In this document: positions 1,454 to 3,425 of the stretch, in pieces
Position numbering within the stretch: the stretch's first letter is position 1
Layout: the number at the start of each line of letters is the position of its first letter
Source of the DNA: an uncultured Dehalococcoidia bacterium
GTDB lineage: Bacteria > Chloroflexota > Dehalococcoidia > Lucifugimonadales > UBA3495
DNA length: 10,141 nt
Assembly: GCA_950072105.1 (NCBI GenBank)
Contig: CATMOE010000095.1
Location: forward strand, 1-10,141
Direction: 5' to 3'
Notes under the pieces: generated by a model
Databases searched by the model: none
What the model was told of the DNA's origin: nothing
Seen by the model: only the letters and a program-made list of their open reading frames with translations
Made by a program: the position numbers and the translations under genes

Positions 1454-1470
1454 GGCCAGTCACGCTGGCC
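1454..1470 (-). promoter_or_regulatory. Candidate bacterial SECIS element (3' UTR of the 1901..1473 gene)
   Basis: mRNA GGCCAG-CGUGA-CUGGCC, a perfect 6-bp stem beginning 14 nt after the UGA, with GU at loop positions 2-3. Possible lower stem UCUGU (1479-1475) with ACAGA (1441-1437). Confidence 0.62.
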
Positions 1471-1472
1471 TC

Positions 1473-1901
1473 TTACAGAACGGGTCAATTCGTGTAGGTG
1501 TCTGACTGAACGACCTCGTAACCGCTTTTCAAAATGTCATCTTCCGACCGGATGGTGTTGGCGACGTGATCCCGGGGTACGATCACGAAATGGTATCGCC
1601 AGATGGGGCTGTACCCTGGATCTCCGGGCCTGGTGTCGTATATACCGTACTGGCCCGTAACTCTTTCCGGCCTGCCATCGGGACCGTCGATGGTGTATAC
1701 CAGGACAAATTCCTTGCCATACTTCTACTTTTCCGGATCGATGTAGACGATTCCCGCGGGCATGGCGAAAACCATCTCGCCACGAACCCTCCGAGGTCCG
1801 ACCCGCTGGCCGTGGGGATTGGAAAATGTCAACAGCGGGTCCGTGATTTCCACGGTCACGTCGCCGCTGTAATGTAGCCCTCCGGATGAGTCACTTGCCA
1901 T
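1473..1901 (-). CDS. Unannotated 142-codon gene (DUF7482-like, YSPIW...N-U-P-V-L); candidate selenoprotein, interrupted by an in-frame TAG (may be a pseudogene)
   Basis: Strong SD AAAGGAG, then ATG at 1901. Manual translation: MASDSSGGLHYSGDVTVEITDPLLTFSNPHGQRVGPRRVRGEMVFAMPAGIVYIDPEK*KYGKEFVLVYTIDGPDGRPERVTGQYGIYDTRPGDPGYSPIWRYHFVIVPRDHVANTIRSEDDILKSGYEVVQSDTYTN(TGA)PVL-TAA. TAG at 1725-1727 (codon 59), TGA at 1485-1487 (codon 139), TAA at 1473-1475. Confidence 0.78.
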
Positions 1902-1971
1902 TATTTATATCTCCTTTGCCGATTTTATCCGGGGTGCTTGACCCCGGTCTTCTTCCAAATACCTGCAGGCG

Positions 1972-2541
1972 TTAGGCATGCTGTTCGGGTCTCATATGGG
2001 AGCGAACGATCTCCGCGTGGGCTTGAATCTTACCCCGGTCCATGCGCAACGGTTGTCCTTCCGAATCGAATGGGGCCTTGAAATCAAAGGCATGGGCCGT
2101 TGGACCGTTATCGTGCAGGTGCTCTAGGCGTTTGGCGCCCTGTGCTCTGGTGGGGGTCTCGTCATCCGGTATCCACCAGGCTACGAAGGCGGGCCAGTCA
2201 CCTTTGACGAACCAGTCGTCGCGTTTGCTCAGAACCTCGGCATGGAACCCATAGTAGGTAAAGGCGTAAACCGACTCCACATCTTCCCAAAGAGAAAGGG
2301 TTGCCGGGGCATCGCGGTGCTCCCCGCTGGTAAGGAATCGGGGACTGACGTCGCGAGTGCCCCAATCCCGCTCACGGGTAGCGTGGTCTCTTTTCCAACT
2401 ATTACCGGACCGGTTTACGAACCCCTCCGAGTTCTCGGCGCTGGTATAAATAAAGGGGTTCCGGTCATGGAATCCATTGATCTGCTCGTGGTCGCGCGGC
2501 TGCTGGAGTATGCCAAACGTATACAGGACCAATTTCGCCAT
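1972..2541 (-). CDS. DUF3291 family protein (dimeric alpha-beta barrel, ABM-like)
   Basis: GGAGGTG SD. Motifs AENSEGFVNR, TLSLWEDVESVYAFTYYGFHAEVL...DDWF, WWIPD...P, RLEHLHDNGPTAHAFDF are characteristic of DUF3291. Confidence 0.88.
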   Translation of the reverse strand: MAKLVLYTFGILQQPRDHEQINGFHDRNPFIYTSAENSEGFVNRSGNSWKRDHATRERDWGTRDVSPRFLTSGEHRDAPATLSLWEDVESVYAFTYYGFHAEVLSKRDDWFVKGDWPAFVAWWIPDDETPTRAQGAKRLEHLHDNGPTAHAFDFKAPFDSEGQPLRMDRGKIQAHAEIVRSHMRPEQHA

Positions 2542-2666: not shown

Positions 2667-3425
2667 CTACGACGGGCTTCGGTTGCCTGCCAGGTGTTCC
2701 AGAGCCTTACGCCACTTATCCAGATCACCCCGGCCAAAGCCATCCCGATAGGTAATCACGCCATTGCCGTCGATGGCGATCTTGGTAGATTGCTGCAATA
2801 TGTGAAGGTCCCGAAGCCCGGAGCTACCAATCCCGGCCACGGACCAGGGGTAACCCTGCTTCTGGCGGTCTTGTTCCAGAACGGCGACGGTTTGAGTAGG
2901 GTCTGATCCCACCAGGTAAAACGCGATGTTTTCAGTGTATTTAGGGTCCAGGGTCGCTAGGCGCCGCAACTCGGCGCGACATACCGGTCACCAGGCCGCA
3001 TGAAAAAAGAGAAAAGCCGGTTGCTTTCTCTGCAGCAGATCGGCGGATGTGAGGATAGTACCGTCAAGTAGCTCAAGCTCGAAGTCAGGAATCCGGTTCC
3101 CCACCTTGGTACCTATTGGAGGTGGAGGCGCCGCGGGTTCAGAAGTTGGAATCGCAGTCGTTTGAGATGGGACCGAAGTCGCTGCATTTTCGTTTGTTGC
3201 AAGGGTAGCTGGATCTCCTTCCTCTGAGGGCGCTGTCGGCGATGCGGATGGCGTGACGGCGGCTGTAGCGCTAGCAGGTAAAGACGGCTGAGATTGGGAG
3301 GTTTGATTGCCGGGGACTGTCGTGGGAGAGGCCGCTTCTTGGCTTATCGATGATCCGCCGCAGGCCGATTGGGCCAATACCGTCAATGTCACACCCAACG
3401 AAACTGCGACGAGTCTTAGCCGCAT
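2667..3425 (-). CDS. TlpA/peroxiredoxin-like thioredoxin-fold lipoprotein, selenoprotein with UxxC (252 aa, Sec146)
   Basis: Track ORFs 2988..3425 and 2667..2969 are in the same frame, joined by TGA at 2988-2990: ...VGNRIPDFELELLDG...FLFFHAAW-U-PVC-RAELRRL...IAIDGNGVITY. This matches the TlpA/AhpC-TSA pattern F.A.WCPxC..E. N-terminal signal peptide with lipobox QSA-C, then a Pro/Ser/Thr/Ala-rich linker. Confidence 0.9.
2961..2977 (-). promoter_or_regulatory. Candidate bacterial SECIS element within the TlpA-like CDS
   Basis: mRNA GCGCCG-AGUUG-CGGCGC, a perfect 6-bp stem starting 10 nt after the UGA, with GU at loop positions 2-3. Flanking GUC...GAC can extend the stem. Confidence 0.7.

Follow-up and report, generated by a model that had tools for sequence, protein, structure and literature searches.

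An apparently uncatalogued DUF7482-like selenoprotein family, with a nonsense allele of its gene in an uncultured Dehalococcoidia bacterium

Bacterial selenoproteins that are decoded by SelB through a bSECIS element fall into 119 families in the catalogue of PMC13188914 (Table 1). In the bSECIS model of that paper, a short stem capped by a G-U loop stands 17-28 nt downstream of the UGA codon. The gene described here shares with these families the UGA and the G-U-loop stem, homologues with Cys, and selA, selB, selD and tRNA-Sec; it differs in that none of the 119 has this domain or its N-U-P-V motif, and in that its SECIS, placed behind the stop codon in the 3' untranslated region, is under no coding constraint. 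The domain itself is homologous to Pfam DUF7482 (PF24298), a two- or multi-repeat and mostly exported family with an NCP[VI] motif whose Cys falls at the UGA column. Compared with PF24298, however, the protein studied here is a single repeat with Sec in place of Cys and an extra N-terminal YxNP segment, and its clade has no signal peptide. It also differs from the thioredoxin-fold selenoproteins with UxxC or CxxU motifs, which have a partner Cys, whereas none is conserved in the DUF7482-like Sec family.

A further point of comparison is offered by the cargos of family 1 encapsulins. The available parts of the sources describe LTVGSLRR as the targeting peptide of ferritin-like cargos in M. xanthus, with TVGSLIQ also acting as a targeting peptide (PMC7925596, PMC10960027), and report N-terminal TVGSL on IMEF-associated ferredoxin cargos (PMC8346489). 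The family 1 cargo types given there are peroxidases, ferritin-like proteins, hemerythrins, bacterioferritins and ferredoxins, with no selenoprotein and no DUF7482 protein among them (PMC8346489). The TVGSL peptide of these cargos is often present in the predicted proteins of a sister Sec clade, whereas the clade of the gene studied here has no such tag.

That gene lies in a stretch of 10,141 nucleotides (the window; contig CATMOE010000095.1 of assembly GCA_950072105.1) from an uncultured Dehalococcoidia bacterium. By its named relatives the organism belongs with marine Chloroflexota/Dehalococcoidia, presumably in the lineage labelled SAR202. Taken as a whole, the locus is probably a nonsense allele of a real DUF7482-like selenoprotein gene, whose lone selenol may serve as a redox or detoxification centre; members of the family would be delivered according to the N-terminal tags that they carry.

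The family is real and apparently uncatalogued. An earlier note on this DNA did not know it as a described selenoprotein family, and it is absent both from the 2026 catalogue of 119 families (PMC13188914) and from NCBIfam, of which no model matches any Sec branch tested. No description of it was found in the abstract and content section of BSepDB (PMC13326102) or in the available portions of the deep-Sep (PMC12013277) and SelCysML (PMC13745706) reports. Searches of the open-access literature yielded no description of a DUF7482-like selenoprotein family and no paper on DUF7482 by name.

The gene, its UGA codon and its hairpin

The gene occupies 1473..1901 on the minus strand and encodes a single-repeat protein of 142 aa. 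Its Shine-Dalgarno sequence AAGGAG (1911..1916, read 1916-1911) stands 9 nt upstream of the ATG at 1901, and its frame ends ...YTN, TGA (1485..1487, codon 139), P-V-L, TAA (1473..1475), so that the predicted Sec is the fourth residue from the C-terminus. The strong ribosome-binding site, the quoted peptides and the N-TGA-PVL-TAA ending that the earlier note had reported are all found on this strand, and as no Cys occurs anywhere in the read-through translation, its statement that this would be the sole thiol or selenol stands as well. Its description of a hidden gene is correct as far as a real gene with Shine-Dalgarno sequence, TGA-PVL-TAA ending and hairpin is concerned, but the frame is not open: an in-frame TAG at codon 59 (1725..1727) had gone unreported. 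The gene is missing from the list of open reading frames because the resulting pieces of 58 and 79 aa are below the limit or lack a start. Compared with eight diverged relatives, its dN/dS is 0.03-0.17.

Several neighboring genes in the window are co-oriented with it on the minus strand. A DUF3291 gene (1972..2541) is the neighbor in nine loci of the marine clade. At 0.8 kb upstream lies a TlpA/AhpC-TSA-like gene (2667..3425) with the motif W-U-P-V-C, its UGA at 2990-2988 and a hairpin of its own; gene callers split it at the in-frame UGA. It is a selenoprotein of known kind and provides an internal control for Sec decoding. Downstream are genes for an 82-aa protein with a weak DUF1059 match (1121-1369) and for a 172-aa protein without Pfam match (534-1052), which we take to resemble AhpD/CMD.

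Two nucleotides after the TAA, and wholly within the 3' untranslated region since the frame closes four codons behind the UGA, follows the hairpin GGCCAG-CGUGA-CUGGCC (1454..1470, read 1470-1454), the SECIS-like element announced by the earlier note. With its 6-bp stem, CGUGA loop 20 nt after the UGA and energy of -9.6 kcal/mol it conforms to the bSECIS model of PMC13188914. Folding of this single sequence does not place it above shuffles (z 0.03 to -1.4), and its significance is drawn instead from conservation across relatives. Using as criterion a stem of at least 5 bp, a G early in the loop and -5 kcal/mol or lower, a hairpin follows 47 of the 50 distinct TGA tails; the figure is 8 of 31 for Cys tails and 51 of 598 for ordinary TGA stops in the window genome. 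From 43 of the 50 tails, 36 distinct hairpins could be aligned in a five-base loop register (the other seven tails have four-base loops or broken stems). Among these 36 the loop G and U are invariant, 97% of the stem cells are paired and two-sided, compensatory changes occur in all six pairs; the covariation score was reached by none of 500 shuffles and slid controls pair in 20-45%, although the register was picked for pairing, a choice that favors the structure. Since the element sits in untranslated RNA, the covariation reveals a bacterial SECIS that is free of coding constraint.

The codons at the UGA column show a consistent pattern. TGA-P-[VI]-[LI] is kept in 22 of the 23 GTDB loci and in all 14 metagenome loci (out of 17) that reach the C-terminus, nearly always with a stop codon directly behind it. 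When the distinct tails of all loci are counted together, TGA stands at the column in 50, a Cys codon in 31 and another codon in four, and neither TAA nor TAG occurs there; the P-[VI]-[LIV] after the TGA is kept through synonymous changes. Of 57 protein homologues, compared at protein level, 47 stop just before the column and nine are fragments or frameshifted, while a single one (P0019, 65% identical to the closest match) reads on past the column as N-C-P-V-I. A tail-inclusive profile matched 20 of 401 genomes of a phylum sample, 17 of which bear TGA at the column; in a class sample it matched 19 of 401, 10 of them with TGA. Every single-repeat match in these samples that reaches the column has TGA, whereas the repeat-type matches show no stop, the position being taken by Cys or some other residue. 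In a set of 147 distant representatives, 36 of the 77 single-domain proteins stop immediately ahead of the column, while none of the 69 multi-repeat proteins does. The Sec forms are mostly from Chloroflexota, other records being labelled Bacillota, Clostridia and Solirubrobacterales (the last a contig of 508 bases); samples of these other groups gave mainly Cys or non-Cys forms. One genome (G472; L088/L142) carries a second, frameshifted copy that ends V-D-TGA-P-I-L and is followed by a hairpin remnant. The unpublished genomes are counted as follows, and no conclusion rests on any of them: G286/G474 counts once in the 22 of 23 loci, the 50 tails and the two selA counts of 17/17 and 23/24 given below, G097 is one Cys tail, and G204, G232 and G331 are within the 308 of 401.

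The window genome has selA, selB and selD above profile cut-offs (selD itself with a TGA) and tRNA-Sec (selC). All 17 TGA-bearing genomes have selA, against 308 of 401 overall, a modest difference (p about 0.016) between genomes whose kin are not independent; the same dependence among kin applies to the further set in which 23 of 24 genomes have selA. The window genome is rich in selenoproteins: it has no fewer than seven U-G-S-C paralogues whose hairpins are nearly identical (contigs C1, C16, C22, C30, C66, C73 and C133), together with several other U-x-x-C candidates. The UGSC family is already catalogued in PMC13188914. One contig of the same genome holds 30 tRNA calls, 29 of them within 17631-22111, a large array possibly derived from a mobile element.

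At the level of the family, then, the proposal that the UGA encodes Sec holds: Cys aligns with the TGA both in P0019 and in two-repeat DUF7482 proteins, other genomes keep TGA-P-[VI]-x with its hairpin, and the complete machinery is present. None of the three contrary outcomes listed in the earlier note (relatives that end at the Asn or lack Cys at this column, no other TGA-bearing orthologues with the P-V kept, a genome without selABCD) was found. In intact alleles the short hairpin that follows the true stop would be bound by SelB, and the sequence comparisons make it very likely that Sec is inserted at the UGA, four residues from the C-terminus.

Domain, branches and a link to encapsulins

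The earlier note named the family as DUF7482. The homology is real, as HHalign of the single-repeat profile against two-repeat DUF7482 proteins, members that pass the Pfam cut-off, gives 99.7% (E 1e-26, 113 columns) in an alignment that puts the NCPV Cys at the UGA column. Membership in the narrow sense does not follow: the window protein is a single repeat, whereas the Pfam model spans 257 positions and two repeats, and its scores of 17.3 and 18.8 bits remain below the gathering cut-off of 27.5 bits, the matched stretch being residues 84-123 (1533..1652, minus strand). Structure models point to a beta-rich domain in which the Sec is placed at the end of the last beta-strand. Foldseek found no match at E<=0.001 for either the single-repeat model (pLDDT 76) or the two-repeat model (pLDDT 97.6). 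The best Z in a fold comparison with 48,161 PDB chains was 2.5-2.6, a weak match that does not show a new fold; PDB sequence matches had E>=0.24 at best and the ESM Atlas returned unnamed clusters only, below 0.9.

A quick tree was built from 98 rows and 120 columns, leaving out fragments and three unpublished loci. It has many open forks and separates three branches: the window clade, a FEN/VEN-U-PV clade and one with twin-arginine-like signals. The Cys protein P0019 nests among the Sec forms, whereas the two-repeat Cys proteins group by themselves. Further members that end before the column carry peptidoglycan-binding domains. These differences suggest that N-terminal tags may send the same Sec module to different places, by way of twin-arginine-like signals, peptidoglycan-binding domains or the TVGSL encapsulin peptide, while proteins without a tag, as in the window clade, would stay in the cytoplasm.

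The TVGSL peptide occurs N-terminally, as [LFWS]TVGSL, in ten genomes of the FEN/VEN clade (nine distinct, as two loci are 99.9% identical). All ten have a family 1 encapsulin (NF041155, PF04454), which is adjacent to the Sec gene in seven, while the 11 genomes of this clade without the tag, including one with TVGQL, have none. For comparison, the baseline in one class is 15 of 61 genomes, and related encapsulins occur in 10 of 52 genomes in which no Sec gene was found, besides the decayed G208. Six of the seven adjacent pairs are divergent rather than operonic, and TVGSL is scattered on the tree (six changes). In four genomes that yielded no Sec gene, the ferritin-like genes next to shells of 48-51% identity end in TVGSL[LF]; because cargos of related shells end in this way, TVGSL can be regarded as the native tag of these shells. 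The window protein has no targeting motif, TVGSL is found within the first 70 aa of none of the 2729 long ORFs of the window genome (92% complete), and PF04454 has no match there. The gene comparisons thus make the tagged Sec branch a likely, though putative, encapsulin cargo. In the open-access literature we found no paper relating encapsulin to selenocysteine and no description of a selenocysteine protein loaded into a bacterial nanocompartment.

Two observations concern the shells themselves. Decay has affected both the Sec gene of G208 and the encapsulin gene next to it (L120:6500-7400). Six loci (L136, L137, L138, L147, L148 and L155) have a family 1 encapsulin without a tagged cargo gene in the flanks covered, the cargo being probably encoded elsewhere.

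Possible roles of the selenol

The neighborhoods of the Sec gene vary among loci. Within 5 kb, the 23 GTDB loci of the window clade show a chromate transporter in seven (most loci have no chromate module), PadR in seven (in one case fused to rhodanese) and a DSP-type phosphatase in four, according to a scan of 58 selected ORFs from 17 of these loci. Glutaredoxin-like UxxC genes (U-F-T-C with a DinB-like tail) are found nearby in two loci (L027:2600-3325 and L036:5460-6032). No conserved partner Cys, be it UxxC or CxxU, is found in the family alignments.

On this basis the single selenol, located where the last beta-strand ends, could be a redox or electrophile-handling centre with a role in stress or in metal(loid) detoxification. 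Because a conserved second Cys is missing, it would have to be re-reduced in trans by partners of the thioredoxin or glutaredoxin type. We favor this role because of the neighboring genes and because known family 1 cargos have roles in stress and in iron handling, but give it about even confidence.

Of the alternatives, the one that fares best is that the Sec is a ligand for a metal or metalloid (Cu, Hg, As, Se), used for binding, delivery or sequestration rather than as a cycling catalyst. The missing resolving Cys would fit such a ligand, as would the chromate transporter, PadR and PadR-rhodanese neighbors, the cupredoxin domains fused to two-repeat Cys relatives (2 of 66 scanned) and a targeting to encapsulins, which suits sequestration. 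Yet no cluster of conserved His, Cys or Met residues lies beside the Sec, and redox genes are also among the neighbors, which leaves this possibility rather unlikely. A structural role is improbable. Single repeats joined by an inter-subunit diselenide would mimic, as covalent dimers of a binding domain, the two-repeat Cys proteins, whose model forms one rigid unit (pTM 0.91), and Sec is indeed confined to single-repeat forms; many repeats, however, have no Cys at all and the cytoplasmic forms reside in a reducing milieu. A homodimer prediction (score 0.00) was counted neither for nor against. Cys is absent from 46 of 165 repeats of multi-repeat proteins, from which it follows that the fold can work without a thiol, and also from several single-domain forms; six single-domain relatives (P0142, P0164, P0167, P0173, P0174 and L086) have His, Arg or Leu at the Sec/Cys column.

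A decaying allele and the meaning of the family

The copy in the window cannot be equated with the intact gene. Its TAG lies 80 codons ahead of the Sec codon, at a position where relatives carry CAG (Gln); L008 differs from the window coding sequence at that single base, and in relatives such as L008, L002 and L003 the frame is open from start to UGA. The TAG recurs in L009 and L010, and among assembled contigs of four runs it is present in three (one an RNA library) with CAG in the fourth, though some of these records may be the source of the window genome itself. An assembly error was rejected in view of these recurrences. The nonsense allele segregates in ocean samples. Contigs from the RNA library cover the gene, which shows neither transcription nor its level.

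It is very improbable that the TAG is read through or recoded and that this copy still makes a selenoprotein. The TAG allele is the assembled form in three of four runs, including the RNA library, and the remainder of the frame is intact, but CAG stands in the near-identical L008 and in one run, and other marine relatives bear different lesions in this gene. Moreover, the window genome has no PylS match over cut-off and no tRNA with a CUA anticodon, and folding gave no significant RNA structure after the TAG; pyrrolysine insertion and read-through were rejected on these grounds. Later in-frame starts are found at codons 106 and 124 only. The change from CAG to TAG therefore very likely prevents the Sec protein in the window genome, so that the earlier expectation of a selenoprotein from this very copy, made without notice of the TAG, does not hold. 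For the TGA of the same frame, an ordinary stop, with proteins ending at Asn and P-V-L plus hairpin as a conserved terminator-like element, is hardly tenable: databases do end these proteins at Asn and the hairpin does lie after the TAA, but the stop at this column is TGA in all 50 tails and never TAA or TAG, the residues behind it survive synonymous change, the Cys form is nested among TGA forms, and the loop GU is invariant with no U-tract.

Lesions of other kinds are found in marine relatives: L042 has a TAG at codon 58, the G002 lineage (L004, L017-L019) a frameshift near codon 22, and L044 has lost its Sec tail. The occurrence of several independent lesions suggests that selection is relaxed there, and decay of the selenoprotein gene seems to recur in ocean lineages. 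L023 is another of the marine relatives with independent lesions. For the G002 lineage, a shortened Sec protein might still be made from an internal ATG that lies downstream of the frameshift. The window copy is accordingly a decaying allele and not the one to test.

The finding adds a selenoprotein family that is missing from the 2026 catalogue and from NCBIfam, and whose proteins gene callers end four residues early in dozens of genomes. It would also mark the functional residue of an uncharacterised domain for which no solved structural relative was found. Through the tagged branch, selenium biochemistry is connected with encapsulin compartments in a concrete way that can be tested, and shells that have no neighboring cargo gene gain a candidate cargo. 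On balance we lean towards a Sec family, with a fold unlike solved structures, whose members have diversified into forms that are cytoplasmic, exported, bound to the cell wall or packaged in encapsulins, and in whose tagged branch the selenol would reduce or trap a toxic oxyanion, metal or peroxide inside the shell.
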